The notes: generated from the letters alone by a model not told the origin. A stretch of 42,401 nt of DNA from an uncultured Eubacteriales bacterium (GCA_964553505.1 CAZKKX010000002.1:1-42401), one strand, 5' to 3'. Positions 10,262 to 39,412 are shown, numbered from the stretch's first letter. Program-made: numbers and translations.

Positions 10262-10409
10262 ACTTCTTTTCCTCCTTCATTATCATTTTATTTTGGAATG
10301 AAAATATATAATTAGGGCTCTCTGAATACCTTAAACCAGACTATTCAGTAGACCTTAATTAAATCAAGAAGAAATTAAGAATTATTTTAAAATATTATGT
10401 ATGTTAGAA

Positions 10410-10438
10410 TTGAATTCTATTTAAAATACTGGTATGAT
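10410..10438 (+). promoter_or_regulatory. Sigma-A-type promoter for tRNA-Gly
   Basis: TTGAAT (10410-10415), a 17-nt spacer, then TATGAT (10433-10438) preceded by TGG (extended -10). It ends 12 nt before the tRNA 5' end. Confidence 0.6.
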
Positions 10439-10450
10439 ATTTGTTGAAGT

Positions 10451-10524
10451 GCGGGTGTAGCTTAATGGTAAAGCTCCGGCTTCCCAAGCCGGTAACGTGG
10501 GTTCGATTCCCATCATCCGCTCCA
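10451..10524 (+). tRNA. tRNA-Gly, anticodon CCC, with encoded CCA
   Basis: Cloverleaf by hand. Acceptor GCGGGTG pairs with CATCCGC (one G-U). Anticodon stem CCGGC/GCCGG with loop TTCCCAA. T-arm GTGGG-TTCGATT-CCCAT. Discriminator T plus CCA. Confidence 0.93.
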
Positions 10525-10676
10525 TTATTTAATATGACATTTTTTTTAATCTTTGAGAAAATCTATAAAATCAGTTCTATTATATCATTTAAATAGTATG
10601 ATAAGTACTTTTTTTTTCAATCAAGTAGGAAGGAAATGAACGTTCGACCATTAGGCTTCTCCCATGCTGAGCGCAT

Positions 10677-10706
10677 TTGAAAAACGATATCATATATGAT
10701 ATCGTT
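10677..10706 (-). terminator. Intrinsic terminator after the first GntR gene
   Basis: Perfect 24-nt palindrome AACGATATCATATATGATATCGTT (10683-10706), followed on the minus strand by TTTTC. Confidence 0.55.
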
Positions 10707-10726
10707 ATGTTTCAATTCTTGATATT

Positions 10727-11437
10727 TTAAACCTTCCTATTCTTCTGATTATTTTTTTGAAAAACTTCCTCAGTGCTCACAAGATGTTTTCTCAGCATCT
10801 CAGGAAACCCGGATTTATCATCTTTTCTTAGCTCGTATACCAGTTCTTTATGCCATTTAACGATTTGCTTTTTAATGTTAGGATTATATTGAAAGGCTTG
10901 TTCTATAAATTCTCCCAACTGGTTATATATACTTAAATACATGTTTACCAAGTAACGATTTTTTGTACTCTTAGCAAGTAAAATATGAAAATCAAAGCCA
11001 TAATGGCTCATGGCCTCTACATCAGACGATTGATCCGCCTCTTCCATTCTTTTAACTATTGTTTCCAATTTATCAATCTCTTCTTCGGATATATGATTAA
11101 TTAAAACTTCCGCAGCAGCTGTCTCAATAATTCTACGTGCCTCAAGAAGTTCGAAGGTGGTTTTTGTTTCAATATATAAGGGTTCCGTATCTACCCATCT
11201 CCTGGGATCTCCATTTATAATAATGGTCCCTAATTTCGGATTTTGTTTTACAACGCCCATCATCTCCAACTTCTGTATTGCTTCACGCAAAGAAGATCGT
11301 CCTACACCCAGCTGCTTGGAAAATGCTAATTGATTGGGAAGTTTGTCCCCTTCTCTAAGAGTATCATTCTCCAGCATCTTTTTCACTTCATCAATAATAT
11401 ATTCAGATATCTTTTTCTTTCGAATTACTCTATTCAT
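10727..11437 (-). CDS. GntR/FadR-family transcriptional regulator (paralog 1)
   Basis: N-terminal winged HTH LPNQLAFSKQLGVGRSSLREAIQKLEMMGVVKQNPKLGT plus an all-helical FCD-type C-terminal domain. Confidence 0.9.
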   Translation of the reverse strand: MNRVIRKKKISEYIIDEVKKMLENDTLREGDKLPNQLAFSKQLGVGRSSLREAIQKLEMMGVVKQNPKLGTIIINGDPRRWVDTEPLYIETKTTFELLEARRIIETAAAEVLINHISEEEIDKLETIVKRMEEADQSSDVEAMSHYGFDFHILLAKSTKNRYLVNMYLSIYNQLGEFIEQAFQYNPNIKKQIVKWHKELVYELRKDDKSGFPEMLRKHLVSTEEVFQKNNQKNRKV

Positions 11438-11598
11438 TAAAGCTCATCCATTCATTTCAGCTGTATTATTTTGATTCAGGCTTGAAAAATTGGCATTCTT
11501 TTTCATTTGTTCCCGGATAACCTATTCTTATAAAAGCTAAATTTATACTTTTTTCAAAGATTGTCAATTTGTCAAGCATGAGCCTTTTTGTTTTACTA

Positions 11599-12315
11599 CT
11601 ATTCTTTTCTTTTCCCTAAATTGTATTGGTAGAAATCATGCTCTGTACTGGAAAGATGTCCCTCAACCATTTTTGGGAAATTAGATTTATCTTCTTTCTT
11701 TAATTCTGCTACTAATTTTTTATGCCATTCAATGGTTTGTTTCTTAATGTTTGGATTGTATTCAAAAGCTTCTTCGATAAATTCTCCTAACTGATTATAC
11801 ATACTGAGATACATATTGATTAGATAACGGTTGTTCGTACTTTTAGCAAGCAAAATGTGAAAGTCAAGATCATAGTTGCTCAACGCATCCACATCAGTTG
11901 ATTCATATGCTTTTTCCATTTTTTGTACAATTGAATCCAACTCATTGACTTCTTTATTCGTAATATGCTCAATCAAAACCTCTGCCGCAGCAATTTCAAT
12001 AATTTTACGCGCCTCCAAAAGCTCTCTGGTGGTTTTAGGATCCAAATACAGTGGAGTCTCAATGGTGTTTACCCATCTATCCGGATTGCCATTTATAATA
12101 ACAGTACCCAATTTAGGGTTTTGCTTTACAACACCCATCATCTCCAGTTTCTGCAAAGCCTCCCTTAACGAAGACCGGCTGACACCCAACTGCTTTGAGA
12201 ATGTCAATTGGTCGGGAAGTTTATCCCCTTCATTCAAAGTTTTGTCTCGAAGCATATTTTTGACTTCATCAATAATATATTCCGACAATTTTTTCTTCCG
12301 AATTACTCTTTCCAT
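11599..12315 (-). CDS. GntR/FadR-family transcriptional regulator (paralog 2)
   Basis: Same architecture and colinear with paralog 1 over its full length (roughly 70% identical by eye). The start was set to ATG 12315 (MERVIRKKK), which is preceded by AAGGAAGGA and matches the paralog-1 N-terminus. The 12375 start has no RBS. Confidence 0.85.
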   Translation of the reverse strand: MERVIRKKKLSEYIIDEVKNMLRDKTLNEGDKLPDQLTFSKQLGVSRSSLREALQKLEMMGVVKQNPKLGTVIINGNPDRWVNTIETPLYLDPKTTRELLEARKIIEIAAAEVLIEHITNKEVNELDSIVQKMEKAYESTDVDALSNYDLDFHILLAKSTNNRYLINMYLSMYNQLGEFIEEAFEYNPNIKKQTIEWHKKLVAELKKEDKSNFPKMVEGHLSSTEHDFYQYNLGKRKE

Positions 12316-12514
12316 TAGTTTCCTTCCTTTATATAGTATTAATTTTGTAAATAATTTTAATCTCTGCACTTGCAATGATTTTATTCACTCATAAATCTTA
12401 TCATATAATCATAGGCTTGGAAAGTTTTTTGTTAATAATTTGTCATCAATTACCAGCATAGACATTTCATCAGCTATAATTTAAAAAATGGAAATACTCT
12501 ATTATTCATTATCA

Positions 12515-12718
12515 TGAAAGGCTGCTTTATAAAGCAGCCTTTGAGATTGTTGAAAAAGCCTACAATCTCCAGGCTTTTGAAAAATTCGAAGTTCAAGGCG
12601 CGCTGAGAGCGAGCAGCGGAGCTTACTTCAGGTAAGTGAGCATGTTCGCTTGAAAGCAGTAACGCAGAAATTCGGAGATTTTCAACAGCCTGAAAGGCTG
12701 CTTTATAAAGCAGCCTTT
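12515..12718. repeat. Composite repeat: two identical 28-bp palindromic units bracketing a GC-rich core of about 148 bp
   Basis: TGAAAGGCTGCTTTATAAAGCAGCCTTT occurs at 12515-12542 and again at 12691-12718. Core segment 12587-12632 recurs at 42356-42401. Confidence 0.8.
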
Positions 12719-12737
12719 CATGGGCTTATATTGGTAT

Positions 12738-14414
12738 TTATAAAATTACCGCTCCTTTATCTGCAGAAGATGCTGTTTTCGCATACATTCTCAAATAGCC
12801 GTTTGGCACTTCTTTCTGAGGAGCTTTCAAACATTGCAGTCTTTTTTCGATTTCTTCATCGCTTAATTCAATATCCAGAAGTCCTTCTGTTACGTCAATT
12901 TTTATTATGTCCCCGTCCTCAATAATGGCAAGAGGACCGCCTTCCGCTGCTTCAGGAGAAATATGCCCGATGAATAGCCCGTTATTGGTACCTGAGAATC
13001 GTCCGTCTGTAATAAGTGCCGTGGTAAGGTTTAATCCCATACCGTATAAATACTTCATGGCCTTATACATTTCACGCATACCAGGTCCGCCTTTAGGTCC
13101 TTCATAACGAATCACCACTACATCTCCGTCCTTCACTTCTCCTCCAAGAATAGACTTATTCGCTTCCTCTTCGCTGTTATATACCTTAGCTTTTCCACGA
13201 AACTTATATAAGGACGGATCAAATGCACCCGGTTTAGTAATACCGGTGTTCGGTGCCAGATTTCCTCTTAGAATAGCTACTCCTCCGGTATCATTGAACG
13301 GTTGCTCAGCCGTTTTTATGACTTCAGGATTTTCAGGAAATAAAAATTTATATTCTTTAAGATTTTCACCCAATTTTTTTCCGGTACATGTCATTACTTG
13401 AGTATCAATCCTGTTACCCAAATTATTCATTACGCGAGGAATCCCGCCTGCCCTATAAAAATCTTCCATATCCCACTTGGAAGCCGGGTTAACTTTAGCA
13501 ATTTGAGGCGTGGTTTTATTCAACTGTTCAAATTCATCCACAACATTCATTTCCAAACCTGCTTCATGAGCAATAGCGCTCAAATGCAGCACAGCGTTAG
13601 TAGAACCGCAGGTAGCCATCGTTACTTTAATTCCGTTTCTTATAGCCTCATCTGTTATAATATCTCGTGCTTTGATTCCTTTTTCTGCCAATTCGCATAT
13701 TTTTATACCGGACATATAGGCTGTCCCCAGCCGATCCGAATAAGTTGCCGGTATCAAAGCACTTCCCGTTAGACTCATCCCTATGGATTCTGTTATACAC
13801 ACCATGGTATTTGCAGTGCCATAAAAAGCACAGGAACCGCACCCGGGGCACGCAACATTCTCAAGAGATAAAACCTGTTCTTCGCTGATTTTCCCTCCAT
13901 GCAGCATCCCAACAGCCTCATCTACGGAAGTAGCATCTGTTTTTCTACCGTCAAATTCCGTACCACCCATCATGGGACCTCCGTTTACTAATATGGCCGG
14001 GATATTTAATCGTGCTGCTGCCATAAGCATACCGGGAACAATCTTATCACATGATGCCAATAAAACTATCGCATCTAATCTATGGGCCTGAACCTCAATT
14101 TCAATGGAATTACATATAACTTCTCTCGAAGGAAGTATATATTTCATCCCCTCATGTCCATTGGCAATACCGTCACAAGCACTGATGACACCAAATTCTA
14201 CTGCTGTTCCGCCACCCCTGTATATACCTTTCTTAACAAACTCACTCACCTGATTTAAATTAAAATGTCCGGGTACCAAAGTGCTCCATGAGTTTGCGAT
14301 GCCGATAACCGGTCTGTCGGTCAATTCTTCATCCGTATATCCCATGGATTTATACAGAGAACGGCAAAATGCATTATCTGTACCTTTCAAGTTATCTGAA
14401 CTCCGATACTTCAT
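12738..14414 (-). CDS. IlvD/Edd-family dehydratase (dihydroxy-acid or sugar-acid dehydratase; substrate unassigned)
   Basis: 558 aa. Family motifs SCDKIVPGMLMAAARLNIP, CPGCGSC, IRYEGPKGGPGMREM and ITDGRFSG are present. The N-terminal Cys of canonical IlvD (CNS) reads ANS here. GGAGGT RBS. It lies 30 nt downstream of the PFOR stop with no hairpin between them. Confidence 0.9.
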   Translation of the reverse strand: MKYRSSDNLKGTDNAFCRSLYKSMGYTDEELTDRPVIGIANSWSTLVPGHFNLNQVSEFVKKGIYRGGGTAVEFGVISACDGIANGHEGMKYILPSREVICNSIEIEVQAHRLDAIVLLASCDKIVPGMLMAAARLNIPAILVNGGPMMGGTEFDGRKTDATSVDEAVGMLHGGKISEEQVLSLENVACPGCGSCAFYGTANTMVCITESIGMSLTGSALIPATYSDRLGTAYMSGIKICELAEKGIKARDIITDEAIRNGIKVTMATCGSTNAVLHLSAIAHEAGLEMNVVDEFEQLNKTTPQIAKVNPASKWDMEDFYRAGGIPRVMNNLGNRIDTQVMTCTGKKLGENLKEYKFLFPENPEVIKTAEQPFNDTGGVAILRGNLAPNTGITKPGAFDPSLYKFRGKAKVYNSEEEANKSILGGEVKDGDVVVIRYEGPKGGPGMREMYKAMKYLYGMGLNLTTALITDGRFSGTNNGLFIGHISPEAAEGGPLAIIEDGDIIKIDVTEGLLDIELSDEEIEKRLQCLKAPQKEVPNGYLRMYAKTASSADKGAVIL

Positions 14415-14444
14415 TTACATACCTCCATTTCCACAGTATAAAAC

Positions 14445-17400
14445 TTAAGCCTCTGCTAACCTTTTATAGGTTTCATACCTTTCTTTCGCATCCGCAACAG
14501 CCTGATTAAAGAGCACATCGACCTGTTCCGGGAAAGAACGTTCAAGAGAAGCATATCTGTTTTCACTGTAAAGAAACTCTTTCAGATCCGCTTTTGGCTC
14601 CTTTGAATCTAATATAAACGGATTCTTACCTTCAGTTTTTAACAACGGATTATATCTGTAAAGATGCCAGTATCCGGCTTCCACTGCCCGCTTCATCTCT
14701 TCCTGGCTGTGAGACATCCCGATTTTTAATCCATGCTCCGCACAAGGGCAATAAGCAATTATAAGTGAAGGTCCCGGATAAGCTTCTGCTTCTCTAATCG
14801 CTTTCAATGTTTGTGCCTGATCAGCACCCATGGCTACTTGTGCAACATAAACATACCCGTAACTCATCGCCATAAGTCCTAAATCCTTTTTCTTTATTTT
14901 CTTTCCTGAAGAAGCAAATTTGGATACCGCTCCGGTCGCCGTAGCTTTTGAGGCCTGACCACCTGTATTGGAATAAACTTCCGTATCCAAAACCAGCATA
15001 TTGATATCTTTTCCTGATGCAATTACATGATCCAATCCACCATATCCGATGTCATATGCCCATCCGTCTCCTCCAAATGCCCAGACAGATTTTTTTGTCA
15101 GGTACTCTCTGTTTTCAATAATTGTATCTATTTGTATCTTTTCGCTTTGATCTTTTGTTTTATATTTTTCAAGAACCTTTATTAATTCATGGGATACCGC
15201 CGACGTTTTTTCTGCTTGGTCTTTTTCTGTCAGGTATTTTTCTGCTATATCTTTCAACTCTTCTACTGCAGACAGCTTTTTAATGCTTTCAGTTAATCGT
15301 TCTCTTATCTGCTCAGCTGCAAGAAGCATTCCATAAGCATATTCTGCATTATCTTCAAATAAAGACATTGCCCATGCAGGTCCGTGCCCCTTCTTATCTA
15401 CAGTATAAGGCATAGAAGGCGTACTTCCTCCATAAGCGGAAGAGCATCCTGATGCATTAGCCACATACATTCTGTCTCCAAACAATTGAGTTATTAGTTT
15501 TATATAAGGTGTTTCCCCACAACCGGCACAGGCACCTGAAAATTCAAACAGAGGCTGTGCAAATTGGCTGCTCTTTACAGAATTACTGTTTACGGCATCC
15601 TTTTTAACGGATACTTCCTTCATAGCAAACGTCCAGTTTTCTTGCTGAGCTAACTGAGAATCCAAAGGTTTCATTGTTAATGCAGTATCTTTAGCGGGAC
15701 AAATGCTAACACAACTTCCACACCCCGTACAATCCATTGGGGAAATCTGCATTCTATATTGATACTTATCAAGGTTTTTACCAATAGCTTTTTTAGTATT
15801 AAACCCTTCAGGTTTTTTAAGAGCCTCTTGCTCATTTAGTAAGACCGGCCTGATAACCGCATGTGGGCAAACATAGGCACACTGATTACATTGTATGCAT
15901 TTATCCATATCCCATTCGGGCACGTCCACTGCGACACCACGTTTCTCATAGGCGGTTGTTCCTGGCGGAAATGATCCGTCTTCCATTCCGACAAAAGTGC
16001 TGACAGGTAATGAATCACCTTCCTGTCGATTCATGACTGATACTACATTTTTTATGAAATCAGGAACCTGTTCATCTTCCTTTTTAACAGCTTCACTGTT
16101 TGCCCATTCTTTAGGAATCTCAACTCTTTTTATATGTGAAATCCCATAATCTACCGCAGCATTATTGATATCCACTACGTTTTGGCCGCCTTTGGCATAA
16201 TAGCTTTTATAAATTGCCTGTTTCATATAATCCACCGCTTCGTCCAATGGGATGATGTCGACCAATTTAAAGAAAGCCGCCTGTAATATGGTATTTATTC
16301 TTCCTCCCATCCCAAGTTCCTTAGCAATAGAAGTAGCGTCTATTGTATAAAACTGCGCTTTTTTTAGTGCCAACATTTTTTTCATCTCAGCCGGCAGTCT
16401 TTTATCCAAGTCTTCATTCGACCAACCGCAATTCAACAGGAATATACCACCTTGTTTTAAATCCTTTACTAAATCATACTTATCGATATATGAAAGATTA
16501 TGACAAGCAACATAATCCGCTGAATTTACCAAATAGCTGGAACGAATAGGCTCTTTACCAAATCTAAGATGAGATTGAGTCAAACCCCCGGATTTTTTTG
16601 AATCATATACAAAATATGCCTGTGTATACAGTTCCGTATGCTCGCCGATGATTTTGACCGTATTCTTATTAGCACCTACCGTACCGTCAGAACCTAACCC
16701 CCACACTTTACAGCTTTTTACATCTTTTGAAGTCACAACTATTTCTTCTTTTACAGGCAGTGAAAGATAAGTAACATCATCTTCAATACCAATAGTAAAG
16801 TTATTCTTAGGATCTTCTGATGCCAAGTTGTCAAATACAGCACAGAGCTGGGCAGGTGTTGTATCCTTTGACGAAAGACCATATCTTCCACCCACAATTT
16901 CCATGGGGATACCCTTTTGCTTAAATATGGTACAGATATCCTGATACAAAGGCTCTCCGATGCTTCCAGGCTCTTTTGTGCGGTCCAAAACAGCTATCCT
17001 TTTTGCAGTTTCAGGAACAGCCTTAAAGAAATGTTCCGTTGAAAAGGGACGATAGAGGTGTACATTGATAAAACCAACCTTTTCGCCTTTGGCAACCAGA
17101 TAGTCTATGGTTTCTATCAATGTGTCACATACGGAGCCCATAGCAATTATGATTCTTTCGGCATCTTCTGCCCCATAATAATTGAAAAGTTTGTAATCCC
17201 TTCCCGTCAGCCGATTGATTTCTTCCATGTAATGTTCTACCGTTTCAGGAATATCGGTATAAAAATTATTACAAGCTTCTCTTTGCTGGAAAAAAATATC
17301 GGGATTCTGAGTCGTTCCTCTGGTACAAGGATGTTCAGGGTTTAAGGCCCTTTTTCTAAAAGATTTAATGGCATCTTTATCTACCAACTTTTCCATATCC

Positions 17401-17966
17401 TCATAATCAAGAGCATCTATTTTTTGTACTTCATGTGAGGTTCTGAAACCATCAAAAAAATGAAGAAAAGGAACCTTTCCACGGATTGCGCTTAAATGGG
17501 CTATCGCTCCCATGTCCATAACTTCCTGAGGGTTTGCTGCTGATAACAACGCAAATCCCGTTTGCCTACAGGCCATTACATCAGAATGATCTCCGAAAAT
17601 GGACAATCCATGAACAGACAATGTTCTCGCAGAAACGTGAAACACACCGGGCAATAATTCTCCGGAAATTTTATACATATTAGGAATCATTAATAAAAGC
17701 CCTTGTGATGCCGTGTAAGTCGTGGTTAAAGCGCCGGCTCCTAATGAACCATGCACCGTTCCGGAAGCACCGCCTTCCGATTGCAATTCTACAACATTTA
17801 CTGTTTGCCCAAAAATATTTTTTCTACCTTCCGCAGACCACTGGTCCACCAATTCTGCCATAGGGGAAGAAGGTGTTATTGGAAAAATACCGGCTACTTC
17901 GGTGAATGCATATGAAATATATGCTGCAGCAGTATTCCCATCTATTATTTTTATTTTTCTCGACAT
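14445..17966 (-). CDS. nifJ: Pyruvate (2-oxoacid):ferredoxin/flavodoxin oxidoreductase, single-polypeptide NifJ/PFOR type
   Basis: About 1170 aa. Two ferredoxin-type 4Fe-4S motifs (CIQCNQCAYVCP, CTGCGSCVSICP) and a TPP-binding C-terminal domain (GGDGWAYDIGYGGLDHV). The start was set to the ATG at 17966 (MSRKIKIIDGN), which is preceded by AAGGAGGG. Confidence 0.95.
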   Translation of the reverse strand: MSRKIKIIDGNTAAAYISYAFTEVAGIFPITPSSPMAELVDQWSAEGRKNIFGQTVNVVELQSEGGASGTVHGSLGAGALTTTYTASQGLLLMIPNMYKISGELLPGVFHVSARTLSVHGLSIFGDHSDVMACRQTGFALLSAANPQEVMDMGAIAHLSAIRGKVPFLHFFDGFRTSHEVQKIDALDYEDMEKLVDKDAIKSFRKRALNPEHPCTRGTTQNPDIFFQQREACNNFYTDIPETVEHYMEEINRLTGRDYKLFNYYGAEDAERIIIAMGSVCDTLIETIDYLVAKGEKVGFINVHLYRPFSTEHFFKAVPETAKRIAVLDRTKEPGSIGEPLYQDICTIFKQKGIPMEIVGGRYGLSSKDTTPAQLCAVFDNLASEDPKNNFTIGIEDDVTYLSLPVKEEIVVTSKDVKSCKVWGLGSDGTVGANKNTVKIIGEHTELYTQAYFVYDSKKSGGLTQSHLRFGKEPIRSSYLVNSADYVACHNLSYIDKYDLVKDLKQGGIFLLNCGWSNEDLDKRLPAEMKKMLALKKAQFYTIDATSIAKELGMGGRINTILQAAFFKLVDIIPLDEAVDYMKQAIYKSYYAKGGQNVVDINNAAVDYGISHIKRVEIPKEWANSEAVKKEDEQVPDFIKNVVSVMNRQEGDSLPVSTFVGMEDGSFPPGTTAYEKRGVAVDVPEWDMDKCIQCNQCAYVCPHAVIRPVLLNEQEALKKPEGFNTKKAIGKNLDKYQYRMQISPMDCTGCGSCVSICPAKDTALTMKPLDSQLAQQENWTFAMKEVSVKKDAVNSNSVKSSQFAQPLFEFSGACAGCGETPYIKLITQLFGDRMYVANASGCSSAYGGSTPSMPYTVDKKGHGPAWAMSLFEDNAEYAYGMLLAAEQIRERLTESIKKLSAVEELKDIAEKYLTEKDQAEKTSAVSHELIKVLEKYKTKDQSEKIQIDTIIENREYLTKKSVWAFGGDGWAYDIGYGGLDHVIASGKDINMLVLDTEVYSNTGGQASKATATGAVSKFASSGKKIKKKDLGLMAMSYGYVYVAQVAMGADQAQTLKAIREAEAYPGPSLIIAYCPCAEHGLKIGMSHSQEEMKRAVEAGYWHLYRYNPLLKTEGKNPFILDSKEPKADLKEFLYSENRYASLERSFPEQVDVLFNQAVADAKERYETYKRLAEA

Positions 17967-18178
17967 TTGTGTCCCTCCTTTTTTTGTCTTTACGGGATAA
18001 GCAAGAAAATCTTTAACAAACAAAATTTTTCTTTCCCTAACAGCCGTACTACAGCTCTTTTATTCTTTTACAACCCCACATACTGGTACCGGCATACATA
18101 AGGAGGTTGAGTATATCCTGTTTAACAATTATCTATTTTGTGATTTACTTTATTTATAATTTTAGTATATTTTTGTTA

Positions 18179-19123
18179 TTATAAATCACTATAAAGGCAT
18201 TTTGCAATTTTGATAAAATCTTTATCTCTTTTCTCAATGACTTTTTCGCCTCTTCCATTTGAATAATCATAAAAACCTTTGCCGGTTTTAGTACCATAAG
18301 CATTCTCTTCATAACACTTTTTCAATAAATCCGGTACCCCTTTCTGATTACTCAAATCATCAAAAAGATAACTTCCTACGTTATAAAAAGTATCCAGTCC
18401 ACCTAAATCAACAGTCTCAAAGGGACCGATACAAGCATATCTCATTCCGAGACCATATTTCATTACGTTATCTACATCCTCTAAATCTGCAATATCATTT
18501 TCAGCAATATACAATGCTTCTCTTAAAACAGCATATTGTAATCTGTTAAGAACAAAACCCTTGACATCTTTTTTTACTATTACCGGTTTTTTGTGAATGG
18601 ATATTGCCAAGTCTCTTGCAATTTCCACCGCTTCCTGTGATGTTTTATCTCCGGATATTACTTCAACCAAAGGTACTATATGAGGCGGATTTACCCAATG
18701 CATACCTGCAAAGCGTTCCGGTTTCTTTACAGCCTCGGCTATCTTTGTAATGGACAGCCCGGAAGTATTTGTGGTCAGCACCGAATCCTCCGGAGCGATG
18801 GCGGATACTTCTTCCCAAAATTTCTTTTTAATCGATAGTTTCTCAACAATGGCTTCAATAACATAGTCGGCCTTACTGAAGCAGCTTACGTCTGTGGAAA
18901 ATGAAATGTTTTTAATAATCTGCTTGGATAGTTCCTCCGTAATACTTCCCTCTTCTATTGAAGCTTTTTGATTAATTGTAATCAGTTCTTTTCCTTTGCC
19001 AATGGCTTCTTCAAAAATATCAAATAATATCACTTTGTATCCATATTGAGCGAAAATTTGAGCCATTGATGATCCCATTAGACCCGCACCGGCAATTACA
19101 ATCATATTGATATCTTTTTTCAC
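18179..19123 (-). CDS. 3-hydroxyacyl-CoA dehydrogenase-family NAD-dependent oxidoreductase (GTG start). The same family includes L-gulonate 3-dehydrogenase.
   Basis: Rossmann motif IAGAGLMGSSMAQ. Family core FAGMHWVNPPHIVPLVEVI and a C-terminal dimerisation domain. AAAGGAGA lies 8 nt upstream of the GTG. Confidence 0.85.
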   Translation of the reverse strand: MKKDINMIVIAGAGLMGSSMAQIFAQYGYKVILFDIFEEAIGKGKELITINQKASIEEGSITEELSKQIIKNISFSTDVSCFSKADYVIEAIVEKLSIKKKFWEEVSAIAPEDSVLTTNTSGLSITKIAEAVKKPERFAGMHWVNPPHIVPLVEVISGDKTSQEAVEIARDLAISIHKKPVIVKKDVKGFVLNRLQYAVLREALYIAENDIADLEDVDNVMKYGLGMRYACIGPFETVDLGGLDTFYNVGSYLFDDLSNQKGVPDLLKKCYEENAYGTKTGKGFYDYSNGRGEKVIEKRDKDFIKIAKCLYSDL

Positions 19124-19174
19124 ATTCTGTCTCTCCTTTCTTTATTATTCTATTCCAATACTAATCAAATTTTG

Positions 19175-20515
19175 TTAGACCATGGAGTCTGGCAGCCATA
19201 AGATCAACTGTGGAACGAATATAACCAATATCAGCAAAATAGCCATCATAGCCAGGAAAGGCATCGATCCTCGGAATATTTCTCCAACGCCGACACGTTC
19301 CTTCAGTTTCATTCCCTGTAAAGATGATTGAACCGTAAATACGGAGATTCCAAATGGAGGCGTAATCAAGCCCATTTCAACTGCGATGATCATTACAACA
19401 CCATACCACAGAGGATCGAATCCCAATCCGATAATAACCGGCACTGCAATAGGCGTTGTCAACAAAATAATTGAAGTGGCATCCAAAATGCATCCCAAGG
19501 CAATCTGAAGTGCACATAGAACCAATACAATGATTATAGGTGCCACAGGTAATTCCACTACAAAATTTCCTATCTTATTTATAACACCGCTGAGAGACAG
19601 CATCCTGGAAAACATCTGAGCCGAAATCAAGAGAAACAGGATGGAACCGCTTGTTTTTCCAGTATCCAGTAACGCATTCCAGAAACGTGCCCAAGTAAAT
19701 TTACCTTTTACAATCATGAGCACCAAAGTGACAAAACATCCTACACCGCCTGCTTCCGTCGGAGTAAAGTATCCGCTCCACATACCGCCGAAAATAATGA
19801 TAATCAATAATACAAAAACCGCAGGTCTTAATAATACTTTATACGCAGGCTCTGCATCTTCTTCGTTTTCATATATTGCCTTTGCTCCGATTTCATCAGG
19901 ATAACGCTTTCCAATATAAAAAATAACAACACAATATAAAAACGTAAGAATAAGACCTGGTACAATTCCTCCAAAGAACAGCTTACCAATGGAAACTTGC
20001 GCAACAGATCCATATACAATCATAAGGATACTGGGCGGTATCAGCATTCCAAGAACCGAACTTCCGGCAATTGTTCCTACGGAAAGCTTTTTGCTATAAC
20101 CCAGCCGCGTCATTTCCGGATAAGCAATTTTAGAAAAAACGGCTGCAGAAGCAATTGAAGCTCCTGTGATTGCAGCAAACACGGCATTAGAGACTACCGT
20201 TGCCATCGCAACACCGCCTCTTAATCTTCTCAATAATAAATTAGCTGCATCGTACAACTCCCGACCTGATTTGGATTCACTTGCAAATAAACCCATTAAA
20301 ACAAATAGAGGAATCACTCCGAATGAATAAGAACGAATAGCATTATAAGATGTCGTTCCCAACAACTTTACTGCAGTATTAAAATTTCCAATTGTCAAAA
20401 ATACACCTAATACACTAACTGATATCAGCGAAACACCAATACCCGTCCCGGAAAATAATAAAACCAATAAGACAAGGAGACAAACTAATCCAATCAATTC
20501 AGCACTTAATAACAT
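19175..20515 (-). CDS. dctM: TRAP transporter large permease (DctM family)
   Basis: 446 aa polytopic membrane protein with DctM-like segments. It overlaps the preceding small permease gene by 10 nt, the classic dctQM arrangement. Confidence 0.9.
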   Translation of the reverse strand: MLLSAELIGLVCLLVLLVLLFSGTGIGVSLISVSVLGVFLTIGNFNTAVKLLGTTSYNAIRSYSFGVIPLFVLMGLFASESKSGRELYDAANLLLRRLRGGVAMATVVSNAVFAAITGASIASAAVFSKIAYPEMTRLGYSKKLSVGTIAGSSVLGMLIPPSILMIVYGSVAQVSIGKLFFGGIVPGLILTFLYCVVIFYIGKRYPDEIGAKAIYENEEDAEPAYKVLLRPAVFVLLIIIIFGGMWSGYFTPTEAGGVGCFVTLVLMIVKGKFTWARFWNALLDTGKTSGSILFLLISAQMFSRMLSLSGVINKIGNFVVELPVAPIIIVLVLCALQIALGCILDATSIILLTTPIAVPVIIGLGFDPLWYGVVMIIAVEMGLITPPFGISVFTVQSSLQGMKLKERVGVGEIFRGSMPFLAMMAILLILVIFVPQLILWLPDSMV

Positions 20516-21045
20516 GTTTCATCCTCCTTTTCTCCAAGAATGCTTTTACCGCGAAGCAACCAATATGCCTGTCGAATCATTATTAAAAGTACCATTAAGG
20601 AGCAGAAAACAATAGTTCCACGTACCGGCCACATAGGAAGCACCAGAGCACCTTCTCCTTCCGTTTCCCTTTCCACAATAGAATATATCAGGTTTGTATA
20701 AGATGACTTTACCATTAAAACAAAGACGATGATTCCAAATATTTGGCTGAAAAATCTCAGTTTATGCTGTAATTTAATCGAGAATTTTTCATAAAAAATA
20801 CTTACTTTTAGATGTTCATCAATCATCTGTACATAAGTAAGCTGCAGAAATGCTATAATTGTGATCAAAGCAACTACCAGTTCCGGAACACCTGTAATAG
20901 GGTTATTGAAAAAGGTACGTCCACAAACATCTGCCATGATAATCACCATCAGAAACATCGTCAGTCCACAACCGATTGCATTGAGCCCTTTAATGTATAT
21001 GGAAAAAGGATCACCTAACTTCCCTCTTTTCTTACCGTTACCCAC
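20506..21045 (-). CDS. dctQ: TRAP transporter small permease (DctQ family; GTG start)
   Basis: 179 aa with four predicted TM helices, positioned between the binding protein and DctM. AAAGGAAGTG RBS. Confidence 0.8.
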   Translation of the reverse strand: MGNGKKRGKLGDPFSIYIKGLNAIGCGLTMFLMVIIMADVCGRTFFNNPITGVPELVVALITIIAFLQLTYVQMIDEHLKVSIFYEKFSIKLQHKLRFFSQIFGIIVFVLMVKSSYTNLIYSIVERETEGEGALVLPMWPVRGTIVFCSLMVLLIMIRQAYWLLRGKSILGEKEDETCY

Positions 21046-21076
21046 ATAATCACTTCCTTTCTTCTATGCTGATTTT

Positions 21077-21108
21077 TATTTGGCGGCAGGTTTAATCCGC
21101 CGCCAAAT
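21077..21108 (-). terminator. Stem-loop between the binding-protein and permease genes (partial terminator or mRNA stabiliser)
   Basis: TATTTGGCGGC (21077-21087) pairs with GCCGCCAAATA (21098-21108). The minus-strand downstream sequence is only weakly T-rich. Confidence 0.4.
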
Positions 21109-21143
21109 ATACCTTTGAGCTTTTGGAATTGAAAGTTTAAGTT

Positions 21144-22277
21144 TTATTTTTCCGGTACTCCGGATAACCAATCCCTGACAGGTTCAAATCCGGCATTTTG
21201 TATTGCTTCAAGATAGTCTCTCATAAACGGACGGATATCATCTATTCCTTCTGCTTCTTTTGCTTCTACATATGATAAAGGTACATTATCAAGAGTATCT
21301 GCCCATTCAACTTTTTGTTCATGTGTCATATAGATAACATCTTCACAATTTTCTTCCAGGAATTCAATTGTTTCATCATATCCCTCTTTGGAGTATTCAG
21401 CTAATCCATAGGTATATGCTTCTCCTCCTGCCATAAAAGCTTGTTGTACTTCTTCTGGAAGGCTGTTATAAAAATCTGTATTGATGGTAATAGCACCCAT
21501 CCATACTGCTTGGAAGTCTCCAATTAAACCATAAGGTGCTACTTCATAAAGATATAGGTCTTTATGGAAGCTGGTAGGCTGTAAAGACATTTCGTATAAT
21601 CCTGTCTGAAGGGCATTATAAGCCTCTGTTCCGGCTGACTGTATGGGAGTCGCTCGATTTGAAACCCAGCTTAGGTTAGATCCTGCTGCACCGACTCTCT
21701 TTCCATCCAGAGAATCCAGACCGGTATAAGGGAACTTTGATGTCATATTATAGCTCTCTGCTGTTGCCCAGCCAAATGGTATCTGACCGAACTTTTCAAA
21801 TTCTTCAGTCAGTTGAGGGTATCTGTCAATAAAGTCAAGCTGAATCTCTAATGCCGTATCCACATCCCAAACACCAAAAGGTACATAGTAAGTTATATTA
21901 CCATAAGGCAGGTTGGATTGTTCGAATACATAACAAACATTGGTCACATCCAGAAGCCCATCTTGGCAAGCTTCCAAACTTTCTGTAACTGTAGCAACTG
22001 TTGCTCCCCAGGACTCTACCCATTCAATTTCATAGTTTCCTGTTTTAGCCAACTCTTCTTCCACCTTAGGCATCATGTACTTTGTCATAGCACCTATCCA
22101 GCGATAACCTTCCGGTGTTTGTCCGGCGCCAATTCGCACCCTAATCTTTTCCGGATCATTTGTCCCTTCACCATTAGGAGCAGTATCTCCTCCGCCCCCG
22201 CAAGCCGTTGTAGCTAAAGCTAAACTCAGGACCAGGAGAAGGGTTAAAATTAACCTTCCCATTTTCATTTGTCTCAT
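21144..22277 (-). CDS. TRAP-associated extracytoplasmic solute-binding lipoprotein (DctP-type by context)
   Basis: Lipoprotein signal LVLSLALATTAC followed by a Gly-rich tether. Located immediately upstream of dctQM. AAGGAGG RBS. The family call rests mainly on context and size. Confidence 0.7.
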   Translation of the reverse strand: MRQMKMGRLILTLLLVLSLALATTACGGGGDTAPNGEGTNDPEKIRVRIGAGQTPEGYRWIGAMTKYMMPKVEEELAKTGNYEIEWVESWGATVATVTESLEACQDGLLDVTNVCYVFEQSNLPYGNITYYVPFGVWDVDTALEIQLDFIDRYPQLTEEFEKFGQIPFGWATAESYNMTSKFPYTGLDSLDGKRVGAAGSNLSWVSNRATPIQSAGTEAYNALQTGLYEMSLQPTSFHKDLYLYEVAPYGLIGDFQAVWMGAITINTDFYNSLPEEVQQAFMAGGEAYTYGLAEYSKEGYDETIEFLEENCEDVIYMTHEQKVEWADTLDNVPLSYVEAKEAEGIDDIRPFMRDYLEAIQNAGFEPVRDWLSGVPEK

Positions 22278-22336
22278 AATATTTCCTCCTTATTTATAAT
22301 TGGTTAAATACTGATTACAAACGAAATTTACTTATT

Positions 22337-22374
22337 CTAAAAAATCGTATGTCATGCTTTTGTGCTGTACGATT
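22337..22374 (-). terminator. Intrinsic terminator after the MBL-hydrolase gene
   Basis: Stem AATCGTA (22343-22349) pairs with TACGATT (22368-22374) and is followed on the minus strand by TTTTTTAG. Confidence 0.5.
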
Positions 22375-22384
22375 GAAATAAATA

Positions 22385-23242
22385 TCAGTCACATTCGACT
22401 ACAAGCCCTGTGCCTGCTTCCTTTACAGGGGCTGCCTTCGCAAGCTGTAATGTGCATTCCAAGTCTGTATCATGACAAATATAGAAATTTTTGATACCGG
22501 CTTTTTTTACATAATCACAGGTCTTATCCATTTGTGCCTGGGGCACTTCATCCGATCTAAGATGGGAACCTCCCAAATATGTGTTAATCGTCTTAGCACC
22601 TGTAAGTTTTTTGGCATATTCCATAATGTTGCAGATTCCATAATGAGCACAAGTAGCTATTATAGTTGCTTCTTCGCCATTCTTGTGTTTATATGCCAAT
22701 TGGGTATCTTCAATACAATAATCGTCGATCCATTCGCCATCTTTCAGTTTTTTGGCAGTTTGCGGAAAGCTTCTCTCGAAATCATTGGTGATTTCAGTTA
22801 GACCCATATAGACCAAATTCTTTGTTAACCACAAAGGTTCTGATTGAAACTGTACGTTAAAATACTGTTCCATAACACCCATGTCCACATCCATGCCAAT
22901 ATTTTGGTTCCAGTTAAATTCATATTTTTTCAGCATGATATCGGGGTGACCCATCAATAACGTAGGCTTTCTGGCTATCCCTCTATCCTTGTAATATTTA
23001 ATCAAGTACTTCAATCCGCCGCCATGGTCATAATGTCCATGAGAAATAACGACATAATCTGCAGTAAGCAGGTCGATGCCCATTTTTTCTGCATTCTTGA
23101 TAAAATTGTCCGAATATCCTGTATCCAAAAGCACTTTAACATCTTCATCTTCTATCCATGCAGAAAAGCCATGCTCCGAATTAAAGAATTTTACAAATAA
23201 ACTGTTGTTTTCAAGCAGCAATGTAGCTTTCATAGTTCTCAC
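22385..23242 (-). CDS. MBL-fold metallo-hydrolase (COG1237-like)
   Basis: VVISHGHYDHGGGLKYL carries the HxHxDH metal motif. 285 aa. Confidence 0.85.
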   Translation of the reverse strand: MRTMKATLLLENNSLFVKFFNSEHGFSAWIEDEDVKVLLDTGYSDNFIKNAEKMGIDLLTADYVVISHGHYDHGGGLKYLIKYYKDRGIARKPTLLMGHPDIMLKKYEFNWNQNIGMDVDMGVMEQYFNVQFQSEPLWLTKNLVYMGLTEITNDFERSFPQTAKKLKDGEWIDDYCIEDTQLAYKHKNGEEATIIATCAHYGICNIMEYAKKLTGAKTINTYLGGSHLRSDEVPQAQMDKTCDYVKKAGIKNFYICHDTDLECTLQLAKAAPVKEAGTGLVVECD

Positions 23243-23286: not shown

Positions 23287-24378
23287 TTATTTCTTATAAT
23301 ATTTATTTGCATATTCTCCATAAGTTTGAGATTTATATACGTCGTAACCATCACGTTGATCGTCAAACCGATAGCGACCGATATCCTTATCTCTCGGATA
23401 CAGGAATCTGGCTGAAGGTCTGAGGATGCAAGTTTTGATTTCCGGTGTATTTTGAGCTACTATCATTTCAAATTGATTGGTTAAATCTTCAGGGTTTCCG
23501 CCTGTATTTACCCAGTTATCATAATGATCAGGAATAGCAAGTTTGGCATTTAAAGCTTGTGCTACTCGTGCACAATCATATGGTGTCATCTTATCTGTTG
23601 CCCCTGGTGCATTCCAGCCCATGTCGAAGGTAACCAAATCGATATCATATGTTTCTCCGATGGCTCTATATCCGTCATGGAACCATGTATCACCACAGAA
23701 CAGCAAATTGCCTGCAGATGTTTTGAATAAGAAACTTGTACACATCTTTTCATAAGGCTCAGGTGTTGCCTGTGCACCTGTTCTTACTACGGTTTCGTCA
23801 TAACACATTAAAAATTCTACTTCAGCGCCAGGTATCTTCATGGATTCTCCAACCTTAGATACAACTAATCTTTCTTTTGGAACTTCAAACGCATCAAACT
23901 TTAAACAAGTATCAGGTGGTCCAACAAATTTGCAATCTGTAGTTTTAAGAAGTGCTTTAATAGTGTACTGATCGCAATGGTCCTGATGTCTGTGTGTACA
24001 GAATGCCGCATCTACTTTGTTAAACTTCCACGGATTGATAAATTGAGGATTCAACCTTAACCAATTAATGGAATCTGAGCCAGATTGTTTGCATACGCCA
24101 CAATAATGCTTTTCGGTATACATGGACGGACCGGAAAATACATCGATAAACGCAATACCGCCTTCATCTGTTTTTAATACCCATGAAGGTCCTCCCAACC
24201 ACCACATAGCTGTTTGTCCTTTGGGAACTTCATATTCTTCGATTTCTTTGTTCATCATAGTTCCCCACAGGCTGGCCACGTCTTCCAACCAAGTTTGATA
24301 AGTGATGTCTTGATTGTGATTCAGCCAATCACCGGACACAATACCTCTGCCATCATCTTTAACTGGTGCATTTGACAT
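23287..24378 (-). CDS. UlaG-like MBL-fold lactonase (homolog of L-ascorbate-6-phosphate lactonase)
   Basis: Colinear with my recollection of E. coli UlaG: TAMWWLGG, CTHRHQDHCD (HxHxDH), DKMTPYDCARVAQALNAKLAIPDHYD, and a C-terminal YPRDKD...RFDD. 363 aa versus about 354 aa for UlaG. Confidence 0.8.
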   Translation of the reverse strand: MSNAPVKDDGRGIVSGDWLNHNQDITYQTWLEDVASLWGTMMNKEIEEYEVPKGQTAMWWLGGPSWVLKTDEGGIAFIDVFSGPSMYTEKHYCGVCKQSGSDSINWLRLNPQFINPWKFNKVDAAFCTHRHQDHCDQYTIKALLKTTDCKFVGPPDTCLKFDAFEVPKERLVVSKVGESMKIPGAEVEFLMCYDETVVRTGAQATPEPYEKMCTSFLFKTSAGNLLFCGDTWFHDGYRAIGETYDIDLVTFDMGWNAPGATDKMTPYDCARVAQALNAKLAIPDHYDNWVNTGGNPEDLTNQFEMIVAQNTPEIKTCILRPSARFLYPRDKDIGRYRFDDQRDGYDVYKSQTYGEYANKYYKK

Positions 24379-24453: not shown

Positions 24454-25653
24454 CTATCTTTCCCATGCGGCTTTAAAGATATTTACCATATCATCTTCAG
24501 AAAGGACAACAAAATTTCCAATTTTTCTCTTATTGCCATATGTTGATTTTTGAGCCATTTCTCTCATCTGAGCTTCAGTTATATCTTTTATTCCCTTTTC
24601 CTCTAAAAGCGCTTTTAAAGAAATCGGCATGCCGAGAGAACCATAAAATTCTTCTGTCTTTTCAATGCCCTCCAAAGCAGTCTTCTCCGGATCCTGGAAG
24701 TTCATTTCGCAATTCCATACATTTACCGCATATTGTGCAAACCTTGCAATATCCGCTTTATATACATAACGTGCCCAGCTGGCCCAGATGGCAGATAAAC
24801 CTGCAGCATGGTCCACATCAAACATACCTCCAAGTTCATGCTCAAGTTGATGCACGGCATAATCTCCAACTCTTCCTGTTTCCAGCAAGTCATTATGTGA
24901 AAGGCTCCCTGCCCACATCAATTCAGCTCTTGCATCATAATTTTCAGGATCATTAACTACTATTTTTCCACTTTTTATAACGGTTTTAAGCAATCCCTCG
25001 CTCATAGCATCAATAAGGTCCACATTTTTAACAGGGGTGAAATAACGTTCCATGGTATGCATCATAATATCAACAATTCCATAAATCGTTTGCTTCATAG
25101 GGAGAGAATACGTAAGTTCAGGATTCATCAAAGCAAATTTAGGACGCATCAAATTATTTGCATATCCGCGTTTCATCCAACCATCTTCGTTTGTAATGAT
25201 GGAAGACTTGCTGGTTTCGCTTCCGGATGCTGCTAATGTCAAAATTACACCTATTGGCAAACAATCTTTTGCGTCTACGAGTCTATCAAACATATCCCAT
25301 GGGTCACAATCATTGGCAATAGCAAGAGCAATGGCTTTTGCAGAATCAATGACACTACCTCCGCCAATTGCCAGAATGAAATCCACATTTTCTTTCTTGC
25401 ACAAGTCAATACCTTCATATACTAATCCCAAACGAGGATTTGGAACAACGCCTCCCAGTTCAACATAAGCAATACCTTCTTTTTTTAAGGATTGGCAAAC
25501 CTGATCTAACAATCCGCTTTTTTTGGCACTGGAACCTCCATAATGCAATAATACTTTCGAACCTCCATAAGCTTTTACCTCGGAACCCACATCTTTCTGA
25601 ACATCTTTTCCGAAAACAACTTTCGTTGGTAGACTAAAACTGAAATTATTCAT
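24454..25653 (-). CDS. Iron-containing (group III) alcohol dehydrogenase, butanol-dehydrogenase/YqhD-like
   Basis: LAIGGGSVIDSAKAIA nucleotide-binding motif, metal-binding His region HQLEHELG, 399 aa. GAGAGGAG RBS. Confidence 0.9.
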   Translation of the reverse strand: MNNFSFSLPTKVVFGKDVQKDVGSEVKAYGGSKVLLHYGGSSAKKSGLLDQVCQSLKKEGIAYVELGGVVPNPRLGLVYEGIDLCKKENVDFILAIGGGSVIDSAKAIALAIANDCDPWDMFDRLVDAKDCLPIGVILTLAASGSETSKSSIITNEDGWMKRGYANNLMRPKFALMNPELTYSLPMKQTIYGIVDIMMHTMERYFTPVKNVDLIDAMSEGLLKTVIKSGKIVVNDPENYDARAELMWAGSLSHNDLLETGRVGDYAVHQLEHELGGMFDVDHAAGLSAIWASWARYVYKADIARFAQYAVNVWNCEMNFQDPEKTALEGIEKTEEFYGSLGMPISLKALLEEKGIKDITEAQMREMAQKSTYGNKRKIGNFVVLSEDDMVNIFKAAWER

Positions 25654-25690: not shown

Positions 25691-25719
25691 ATTATATTAA
25701 CTAAAGCTATTATAGTCAA
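25691..25719 (-). promoter_or_regulatory. Sigma-A promoter of the ADH-lactonase-MBL unit
   Basis: Minus strand: TTGACT (25714-25719), a 17-nt spacer, then TATAAT (25691-25696), about 38 nt upstream of the ATG. Confidence 0.65.
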
Positions 25720-39384: not shown

Positions 39385-39412
39385 TTTATTCCCTCCTATA
39401 TTATTTGTAGTT

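Follow-up and report, generated by a model that had tools for sequence, protein, structure and literature searches.

Described non-phosphorylative routes of sugar-acid catabolism use an IlvD/Edd-family aldonate dehydratase followed either by an aldolase (YagF/YagE, L-arabinonate dehydratase) or by a C4 dehydrogenase and a diketo-acid hydrolase. A 42,401-nt sequence from an uncultured Eubacteriales bacterium (GCA_964553505.1 CAZKKX010000002.1:1-42401; this whole stretch is referred to as the window) carries a block in which a gene for an IlvD/Edd-family dehydratase follows genes for a pyruvate:ferredoxin oxidoreductase (PFOR) paralog and a member of the 3-hydroxyacyl-CoA dehydrogenase (HADH) family. 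As in the described routes, the dehydratase is encoded with an acid-sugar transporter, a GntR/IclR-type regulator, lactonases and a dehydrogenase, and without a sugar kinase. Unlike in those routes, a PFOR paralog stands in place of the aldolase or fumarylacetoacetate hydrolase (FAH)-type hydrolase, and the dehydratase resembles dihydroxy-acid dehydratase (DHAD) and not the arabinonate/xylonate branch. All of the parts come from known families and their coupling belongs with non-phosphorylative acid-sugar catabolism. With a probability that we put at about 0.5, the block is an operon with which an Anaerovorax-like anaerobe breaks down a polyhydroxy compound that bears a carboxyl group (acid sugar, keto-aldonate or its lactone), and in which the dehydratase product would be converted by a dedicated PFOR to a hydroxyacyl-CoA.

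Two related loci (L010 and L007) have the classical module adjoining the cluster, with a 573-aa IlvD/Edd protein accompanied by an FAH hydrolase and a short-chain dehydrogenase/reductase (SDR), or by an HpcH aldolase. The block also resembles the UlaG and ascorbate-uronate routes via 3-dehydro-L-gulonate, as a UlaG homolog adjoins the HADH-family dehydrogenase. In principle, the lactonase would give a 2-hydroxy-3-oxo acid and a 3-oxo reductase would supply the 2,3-dihydroxy acid for the dehydratase. Unlike in the UlaG routes, the homolog scores below its family cutoff (199.7 vs 306 bits), UlaD, UlaE and UlaF genes and a phosphotransferase system are absent, and uptake by a tripartite ATP-independent periplasmic (TRAP) transporter implies a substrate that is not phosphorylated. 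No description of IlvD-PFOR coupling, or of the PFOR subfamily defined below as type A, was found in full-text literature searches.

The three genes form the tail of a co-directional block on the minus strand. They and the leader between the first two are as follows:

18179..19123, minus strand: HADH-family NAD dehydrogenase (Pfam domains; catalytic Ser121, His142 and Asn193 kept, CoA-contact residues absent)
17967..18178, minus strand: HADH-PFOR leader, 212 nt (terminator, fold and Rfam checks)
14445..17966, minus strand: single-chain PFOR paralog, type A (NCBIfam, structure-based residue alignment)
12738..14414, minus strand: IlvD/Edd-family dehydratase (NCBIfam; E. coli-like cysteine pattern; Edd/YagF-like active-site motifs)

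The HADH gene begins 51 nt after dctM, and gaps of 212 and 30 nt separate the three genes; these coordinates and spacings, reported in a first-pass annotation made from the sequence alone, all proved exact on re-reading. The same annotation stated that the block has no aldolase or kinase gene and the window no other ilv genes. Pfam and NCBIfam scans of the 31 plausible window open reading frames (ORFs) of at least 150 aa agree, as they detect no aldolase for 2-keto-3-deoxygluconate or its 6-phosphate, no sugar-acid kinase and no further ilv gene.

Conservation of the gene set

The search for related loci was seeded on the HADH homolog, which has orthologs of 60-79% identity in many anaerobes. 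Seven context look-ups and a scan of one genome per species gave 80 loci, which were screened by tblastn and ORF clustering (groups c10, c18 and c20 were disregarded as spurious long ORFs in high-GC loci). HADH relatives of at least about 62% identity almost always adjoin an ortholog of the dehydratase gene (58-92% identity, 555-560 aa; about 27 loci). These loci usually also carry a UlaG-like gene (59-98% identity) and a GntR/FCD regulator, and often a TRAP system. Of the roughly 27, 16 have a PFOR ortholog no more than 10 kb away: the window, L007, L008, L010, L014, L015, L016, L019, L023, L039, L043, L046, L058, L063, L087 and L090. They come from Anaerovoracaceae, Oscillospiraceae, Lachnospiraceae, Irregularibacter, Synergistaceae and Planctomycetaceae, and so from Bacillota, Synergistota and Planctomycetota. 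The closest public relative is L015, from a metagenome-assembled genome (MAG) labelled Anaerovorax odorimutans, which has an identical gene order and 89-98% protein identity. The window sequence itself occurs in sequencing runs of sludge-metagenome DNA only, and its exact proteins are found on short metagenome contigs only.

Conservation of the trio as neighbours was one of the checks proposed in the first-pass annotation, and the trio does recur in at least three phyla, at times bare. In L039 it has the order IlvD-HADH-PFOR and is preceded by genes for a GH2 glycosidase, an ABC sugar transporter, a TIM-barrel protein and a Gfo/Idh/MocA oxidoreductase; the orders in the other bare trios are IlvD-PFOR-HADH (L043), TRAP-HADH-IlvD-PFOR (L019) and GntR-IlvD-HADH-PFOR (L087). 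The L019 PFOR (7521-11040, in an Oscillospiraceae MAG) is split into ORFs of 279 and 883 aa by a frameshift or assembly error.

Two loci sampled from the dehydratase side extend the picture. L096 encodes GntP, two SDRs, IclR and an IlvD protein of 71% identity, with a PFOR gene 38 nt downstream. L095 combines IlvD and an SDR with a DmpG/DmpF-type 4-hydroxy-2-oxo-acid aldolase plus acylating aldehyde dehydrogenase, a context consistent with a dehydratase that forms a 4-hydroxy-2-oxo acid. A gluconolactonase and an HpcH aldolase are encoded in L025, and Dak1 in L063. As a control, 77 loci of canonical PFORs were taken from metagenomes (57 of at least 10 kb), and none (0/77) has an IlvD-558 ortholog, HADH, UlaG-like or AbfD-like neighbour. 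These comparisons support the view that the dehydratase, HADH homolog and PFOR are a conserved, functionally linked set rather than a chance adjacency to a housekeeping PFOR.

The PFOR and its substrate pocket

Like the NifJ-type PFORs of D. africanus (1b0p), M. thermoacetica (6cin) and E. coli (YdbK), the window PFOR has a single-chain domain order (POR_N, PFOR_II, POR, EKR, two Fer4 and TPP_enzyme_C, all complete), the thiamine pyrophosphate motif and the cluster cysteines. It scores 1892.9 bits against TIGR02176 (cutoff 911) and 1619 bits against 6cin. Thr31, Arg114 and Asn996, which bind the 2-oxo-acid head group, are all conserved, as is Leu121 of the pocket. The methyl pocket of DaPFOR consists of Leu121, Ala219, Ile843, Asn996 and Met1202, and the residue equivalent to 843 governs specificity in StOFOR1 of Sulfolobus (PMC5020499). 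Unlike the NifJ-type enzymes, the window PFOR has the changes Ala219→Thr, Ile843→Ala and Trp844→Tyr, together with Ala120→Gly. Of the three residues that make the methyl pocket narrow in pyruvate-specific enzymes (Leu121, Ala219 and Ile843), Leu121 alone is present; Ile843 is kept in 6cin, 1b0p and YdbK.

The changes are systematic. Thr219 is found in 14 of 15 cluster-linked PFORs vs 4 of 110 family-wide representatives, Ile843 in none of 14 vs 87 of 125, and every cluster-linked PFOR deviates in the 219/843 region. Among the 120 nearest homologs (67-100% identity), 111 have Thr219 and Ala843 with Tyr or Phe at 844, a further 7 have Ala843-Tyr844 with position 219 unread, and 2 at 68% identity retain the canonical Ala/Ile/Trp. 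The Thr219/Ala843 signature is therefore taken to mark a coherent subfamily, called type A, and not drift; the three changes at 219, 843 and 844 are fixed in this subfamily of at least 118 protein clusters. Variants occur in the cluster-linked PFORs of Irregularibacter and Synergistaceae (Thr219, Val843 and an altered 119-121 stretch) and in L096 (Val219, Ala843, Asn121).

Replacement of Ile843 by Ala is predicted to free space for about two to three heavy atoms and Thr219 would offer a hydrogen bond, which fits a short hydroxylated side chain. The suggestion in the first-pass annotation that the PFOR is specialised thus gains from a predicted remodelled pocket and from a linkage unlike that of canonical PFORs.

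The IlvD/Edd-type dehydratase

The window dehydratase has the DHAD-type cysteines (CDK, CPGCGSC) and the catalytic Ser of GRFSG. Its pattern is that of E. coli IlvD, which reads PGH and has no PCN cysteine, so that the two proteins have PGH, CDK and CPxCGSC in common. Lack of the Cys of a canonical CNS motif had been pointed out previously. The window protein does read IGIANSW, but the premise is unsound, as the corresponding stretch of E. coli IlvD, AVVNSF...VPGH, also lacks the cysteine; absence of this residue was therefore rejected as a sign that the enzyme is not a DHAD.

The active-site motifs are more telling. In an alignment with IlvD, Edd and the xylonate dehydratase YagF of E. coli K-12, they read:

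Window dehydratase: ACDGIANGH, GSCAFYGTAN, GRFSGTNNGLF
Window dehydratase and orthologs: xCDGIA(N/Q)GH, GSC(A/S)F(Y/L)GTAN, GRFSGTNNG
E. coli IlvD: VDDGIAMGH, GSCSGMFTAN, GRFSGGTSG (GRFSGGTSGLS)
E. coli Edd, first and second motifs: MCDG, CTFYGTAN
E. coli YagF, first and second motifs: PCDG, CQFLGTAG

The window protein and its orthologs side with the sugar-acid enzymes Edd and YagF against E. coli IlvD, and do not have the motif pattern of a proven DHAD. The window has no other ilv gene and no leu gene, and none was seen beside the dehydratase gene in the approximately 27 ortholog loci examined gene by gene. Motifs and context together suggest a distinct DHAD-like branch recruited for polyhydroxy acids. 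The active-site motifs make the protein look more like a sugar-acid enzyme than a branched-chain DHAD, as had been proposed.

The HADH-family dehydrogenase

The HADH homolog has the 3HCDH_N and 3HCDH domains (Pfam E-values: 4e-58 and 5.7e-24), and Ser121, His142 and Asn193 are invariant in 30 orthologs. It reaches no curated NCBIfam family cutoff (FHMPC dehydrogenase: 257.7 vs 500 bits; 3-hydroxybutyryl-CoA dehydrogenase, Hbd: 244 vs 408). Among solved structures, it matches FHMPC dehydrogenase (4om8) with 212 bits, Hbd with 195 bits and L-gulonate 3-dehydrogenase (3ado/3f3s) with 133 bits, the last match being confined to the N-terminal domain.

The HADH-family enzyme CsTfD acts on free (S)-3-hydroxy-5-oxohexanoate and is without the CoA-contact residues Lys56 and Asn221 of Hbd (PMC10470551). 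Their equivalents in the window protein are Ser60 and Gly226. Gly226 lies in the loop GLGMRYACIGP, which has a 3-residue insertion in common with the non-CoA enzyme FHMPC dehydrogenase and in which Arg228 is invariant. HADH relatives at 51-59% identity adjoin genes for BKACE, which uses free beta-keto acids; the BKACE proteins of the PFOR-less loci L012 and L032 are close to the triacetate-cleaving type. Because the CoA contacts are lost, the 4om8 insertion is present, the protein is like CsTfD and its relatives have BKACE neighbours, the HADH homolog probably acts on a free hydroxy acid and not on a CoA ester. It thus resembles the free-acid members of the family (CsTfD, 4om8, 3ado and L-carnitine dehydrogenase) in fold, catalytic residues, lost CoA contacts, the loop insertion of 4om8 and the co-occurrence of relatives with BKACE. 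Unlike these, its group is defined by adjacency to IlvD and is about 55% identical to the BKACE-linked, TfD-like relatives.

An L-gulonate-3-dehydrogenase type had been offered as an alternative identity in the first-pass annotation. A free-acid dehydrogenase is indeed probable, but the protein is nearer to FHMPC dehydrogenase (212 vs 133 bits). Membership of the lambda-crystallin-type L-gulonate 3-dehydrogenases was rejected, the similarity being below that to FHMPC dehydrogenase and Hbd. An L-threonate 3-dehydrogenase known from the literature was also set aside, as it is an SDR and unrelated.

Proposed route

In the route that we favour, the substrate would enter through the TRAP transporter, and lactone forms would be opened by the UlaG-like and second metallo-beta-lactamase (MBL)-fold hydrolases. 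The HADH homolog, working on the free acid, would reduce a 2-hydroxy-3-oxo acid to the 2,3-dihydroxy acid (the L-gulonate 3-dehydrogenase reaction in reverse); alternatively, it would oxidise the C4 hydroxyl of the dehydration product. The IlvD-type dehydratase would convert the 2,3-dihydroxy acid to a 2-keto-3-deoxy (4-hydroxy-2-oxo) acid. The dedicated PFOR would then yield a hydroxyacyl-CoA (or 3-oxoacyl-CoA), CO2 and reduced ferredoxin, in a step replacing the usual kinase plus aldolase. An iron-dependent alcohol dehydrogenase, or a molybdenum (Mo) hydroxylase in other genomes, would carry out a peripheral aldehyde/alcohol step, and the GntR/FCD proteins would regulate the block. The central step, from dehydratase product to PFOR with neither kinase nor aldolase, had been put forward previously; the linked genes, the PFOR pocket and the dehydratase motifs make it plausible.

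A wider and more tentative proposal, possible but on balance doubtful, is that strict anaerobes have a kinase- and aldolase-free acid-sugar route in which type-A PFORs form hydroxyacyl-CoA directly and so feed acetoacetyl-/crotonyl-CoA metabolism. The products would be, for example, 3,4-dihydroxybutyryl-CoA from a pentonate and 3-hydroxypropionyl-CoA from a tetronate. If this is true, an AbfD-like radical dehydratase, whose gene immediately follows that of the PFOR in some genomes, would funnel them onward there.

Evidence against the route and alternative explanations

Several observations weigh against this route. The window dehydratase exceeds the cutoffs of the DHAD models TIGR00110 (665 bits; cutoff 618.15) and NF002068 (685 bits; cutoff 644), and its best solved relative is a true DHAD (M. 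tuberculosis 6ovt). The cluster-linked PFORs are mutually related, so the pocket counts are not independent events, and position 219 is highly variable family-wide (Ala in 45 of 110), which makes a substitution at this position weak evidence by itself. The Thr219/Ala843 changes may only broaden specificity, with pyruvate still a substrate. L012 and L032 are IlvD/HADH loci with BKACE that have no PFOR within 10 kb. Lastly, the six type-A loci sampled from the PFOR side (L102, L103, L104, L118, L135 and L149) have no IlvD nearby, so the type-A subfamily is not specific to this dehydratase.

The neighbours of these six PFORs are informative in themselves: five of the loci have an aminotransferase gene nearby, three an HpcH aldolase gene and two an AbfD-like gene (4-hydroxybutyryl-CoA dehydratase family; HpaB_N/HpaB) directly after PFOR. 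Oscillibacter valericigenes and Caproicibacter have the order GntR/FCD, PFOR, AbfD-like gene. The AbfD-like gene is found at 13521-14996 in L102, 13523-15013 in L103, 20372-20951 in L010 and 12661-14103 in L027; in Irregularibacter (L010) it comes directly after PFOR, and in L027 it is found some 1.7 kb downstream of the HADH homolog. In L118, L135 and L149, an HpcH/HpaI aldolase, a class I/II aminotransferase and an alanine-racemase-like protein are encoded upstream of PFOR, and a Na_H_antiporter-family (PF03553) membrane protein, IclR and LysR are also present (gene-by-gene annotation in L149 only). The type-A subfamily, unlike canonical PFORs, is thus linked to dehydratase, aminotransferase, aldolase or AbfD-like genes. 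It seems to act in several routes in which a 2-oxo acid other than pyruvate is formed, the IlvD route being one, and the AbfD link hints that the CoA product bears a 4-hydroxyl.

A serious competitor, although we regard it as unlikely, is that the cluster yields pyruvate, which the PFOR then oxidises in the ordinary way. Either glycerate would be dehydrated directly to pyruvate by the IlvD-type enzyme, or a 2-keto-3-deoxy acid made by this enzyme would be split to pyruvate and an aldehyde by an MBL hydrolase or by an aldolase or hydrolase encoded elsewhere, with the alcohol dehydrogenase or Mo-enzyme taking the aldehyde. The very high PFOR scores (1893 bits on the equivalog model, 1619 bits against the M. 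thermoacetica enzyme) and retention of Thr31, Arg114, Asn996 and Leu121 agree with pyruvate as substrate. The alternation of alcohol dehydrogenase and Mo-hydroxylase between genomes is what aldehyde-disposal enzymes would show, and HpcH aldolases (L007, L025, L149) or Dak1 (L063) lie beside some variants. However, the window and most related loci, the bare trios among them, encode no aldolase, and the cluster-linked PFORs have systematic substitutions at pocket residues 219 and 843, which canonical PFORs of equal overall identity keep. The absence of the linkage from all 77 canonical PFOR loci also counts against pyruvate and, together with the remodelled pocket and the conserved linkage, makes the simpler suggestion of a housekeeping PFOR, raised in the first-pass annotation, a disfavoured one. 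That annotation preferred a scheme in which the PFOR forms a 3-hydroxyacyl-CoA from the 2-keto-3-deoxy acid and the HADH homolog oxidises it to a 3-oxoacyl-CoA for thiolysis. The chemistry is coherent, the trio is conserved and the 3HCDH domains and catalytic Ser/His/Asn are present. The third step is nevertheless unsupported, and the complete scheme improbable, given the loss of Lys56 and Asn221, the FHMPC-type insertion, the free-acid enzyme CsTfD without the same contacts, the unreached acyl-CoA dehydrogenase cutoffs and the BKACE neighbours of close relatives. SDRs take the place of HADH in L095 and L096, and the block has no thiolase or CoA-transferase genes.

Degradation of an N-heteroaromatic or pyrone carboxylate, for instance of the vitamin-B6 type, would put the Mo-hydroxylase of other genomes on the ring, an MBL hydrolase on lactone or lactam opening, then the FHMPC-dehydrogenase-like enzyme, and IlvD and PFOR on the open-chain product. 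The HADH homolog matches FHMPC dehydrogenase best among both solved structures and NCBIfam models, the second MBL hydrolase has a faint 4-pyridoxolactonase match, the Mo-enzyme has a split 4-subunit layout and a PdxK/ThiD-like kinase is encoded upstream in L087. Every one of the cited matches is below its curated cutoff, though, the Mo-enzyme is missing from the window and several other loci, amidase and deaminase genes are absent, and bare trios stand in sugar contexts (L039), all of which makes this origin very improbable. It is least credible that the dehydratase is an ordinary branched-chain DHAD whose place after PFOR is functionally meaningless. TIGR00110 and NF002068 are passed and homologs are named DHAD in all sources, but adjacency to HADH and PFOR is kept across phyla, neighbouring ilv genes occur in none of the roughly 27 ortholog loci examined gene by gene and the active-site motifs are unlike those of E. 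coli IlvD.

Implications

Automatic annotation gives the trio the housekeeping names dihydroxy-acid dehydratase, pyruvate:ferredoxin oxidoreductase and 3-hydroxybutyryl-CoA dehydrogenase, so that metabolic reconstructions of anaerobes from digesters, guts and termite guts do not show the module. If the proposed route is correct, it would be a new exit from 2-keto-3-deoxy acids in which a thioester is conserved, reduced ferredoxin is gained and no ATP is spent. Thr219/Ala843 would then be the sequence signature of a non-pyruvate NifJ-type subfamily. On the wider proposal, type-A PFORs would be a new substrate class of 2-oxoacid:ferredoxin oxidoreductases hidden under the annotation of the pyruvate enzyme. 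The coupling, if real, would also provide natural enzymes for hydroxyacyl-CoA routes (for example to precursors of 3,4-dihydroxybutyrate or 3-hydroxypropionate) that exist to date as engineered pathways only. Cultured carriers exist: the PFOR subfamily is present in Oscillibacter valericigenes and Caproicibacter, and the cluster itself in Irregularibacter muris and Pseudoflavonifractor gallinarum. The cluster is also found in the complete genomes OY781100.1 and OY782829.1.

Organization of the block

Upstream of the trio, the block encodes, in order, the iron-dependent alcohol dehydrogenase, the UlaG-like lactonase, the second MBL hydrolase and TRAP DctPQM; hairpins and then two GntR/FCD regulator genes follow the dehydratase gene. 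These features are:

25691..25719, minus strand: promoter-like site TTGACT-17-TATAAT (11/12), upstream of the first gene of the block
24454..25653, minus strand: iron-dependent alcohol dehydrogenase, YqhD-like (Pfam; NF011717 270 bits, below cutoff)
23287..24378, minus strand: UlaG-like MBL-fold lactonase homolog (NF008688 equivalog cutoff missed, 199.7 vs 306 bits; 2wyl 162 bits)
22385..23242, minus strand: second MBL-fold hydrolase, Lactamase_B (Pfam and NCBIfam scans)
21144..22277, minus strand: TRAP transporter DctP (Pfam)
20506..21045, minus strand: TRAP transporter DctQ (Pfam)
19175..20515, minus strand: TRAP transporter DctM (Pfam; TIGR00786 306 bits, cutoff 268)
12516..12719, strand unspecified: two palindrome copies after the IlvD stop (repeat detection)
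11599..12315, minus strand: GntR/FCD regulator 1 (Pfam and NCBIfam; comparison with L015)
10727..11437, minus strand: GntR/FCD regulator 2 (Pfam and NCBIfam; comparison with L015)

The flanks are housekeeping genes (ftsEX, a gene for an M23 peptidase, recJ and ctpA at one end; a gene for a 5'-nucleotidase, uvrB and uvrA at the other), and for this reason the block (10727-25719) looks like an inserted catabolic island. A lone tRNA-Gly gene (anticodon CCC; 10451-10524, plus strand, opposite to the island genes) lies at the island edge, between the distal GntR gene and a 5'-nucleotidase/LysM gene.

The ctpA-like protease gene ends in a terminator-like hairpin (25795-25829), and the promoter-like site (25719-25691), a strong one, then precedes the block. 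The DctM stop is at 19175 and the GTG start of the HADH gene at 19123. From the HADH stop (18179) to the PFOR ATG (17966), no terminator-like structure lies in the leader 17967-18178, as the first-pass annotation held. The mechanical PFOR ORF extends to a TTG at 18023, but orthologs and an AAGGAGG site favour ATG 17966. The HADH stop falls within a sigma-70-like site (TTGCAA-18-TATAAT, 18207-18178), and PFOR-IlvD may therefore both be read through from upstream and have a promoter of its own. Between the PFOR stop (14445) and the IlvD ATG (14414), the 30-nt gap is too short for a hairpin and has GGAGG 8 nt before the ATG, in keeping with the earlier description of a hairpin-free junction with its own ribosome-binding site.

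The leader is 84% identical in L015. Its fold is no better than that of shuffled sequences (z = -0.52), and a riboswitch or other known RNA in it was rejected: at gathering thresholds, Rfam gives one match in the window, a tRNA, and the fold is ordinary. In the minimum free energy fold, a CCUCCUU stretch of the leader pairs with the AAGGAGG ribosome-binding site of PFOR. This stretch and the surrounding CAACCTCC...GGGGTTG are kept in the 90%-related locus L015, and the predicted pairing may be a translational control element.

Just 3' of the IlvD stop, a perfect palindrome of 27-28 nt, AAAGGCTGCTTTATAAAGCAGCCTTTC, occurs in two copies (12516-12543 and 12692-12719) about 150 nt apart, where none would be expected by chance. 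The copies have no T-tail. They probably mark the end of the transcription unit and could be terminator hairpins or a small repeat element.

Transport, accessory enzymes and regulators

The TRAP set is complete by Pfam (DctP being a weak match, 52 bits), and a TRAP system implies a carboxylate substrate. DctP matches solved TRAP substrate-binding proteins weakly (E-values about 1e-10), which is uninformative on specificity. The iron-dependent alcohol dehydrogenase probably carries out an aldehyde/alcohol step. In other genomes it is often replaced by a four-gene Mo-hydroxylase of the xanthine dehydrogenase family (L008, L010, L012, L014, L016, L032 and others), in which the Mo-binding subunit is split (about 430 + 335 aa) and accompanied by FAD and 2Fe-2S subunits. 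The best NCBIfam matches of this enzyme are XdhB and glyceraldehyde dehydrogenase subunits, all below cutoff, and genes for a TylF-like methyltransferase and for Mo-cofactor maturation often accompany it.

GntR/FCD regulators are present in most related loci. Regulator 1 probably starts at ATG 12315, giving 238 aa as in L015. The single GntR/FCD protein of L015 shares 95% identity with the IlvD-proximal copy and 72% with the distal one, which has no counterpart in that locus.

Other features of the window

An IS110-family transposase gene lies at the left end of the window (128-1366, minus strand). At the other end, a second co-directional gene set (34469-42243) may be another catabolic unit. 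It encodes two SDRs, an NAD-kinase/diacylglycerol-kinase-like protein and glycine-cleavage P-protein-like subunits (37981-39384 and 36362-37948), and is adjoined by a divergent sigma-54 activator gene (40474-42243).

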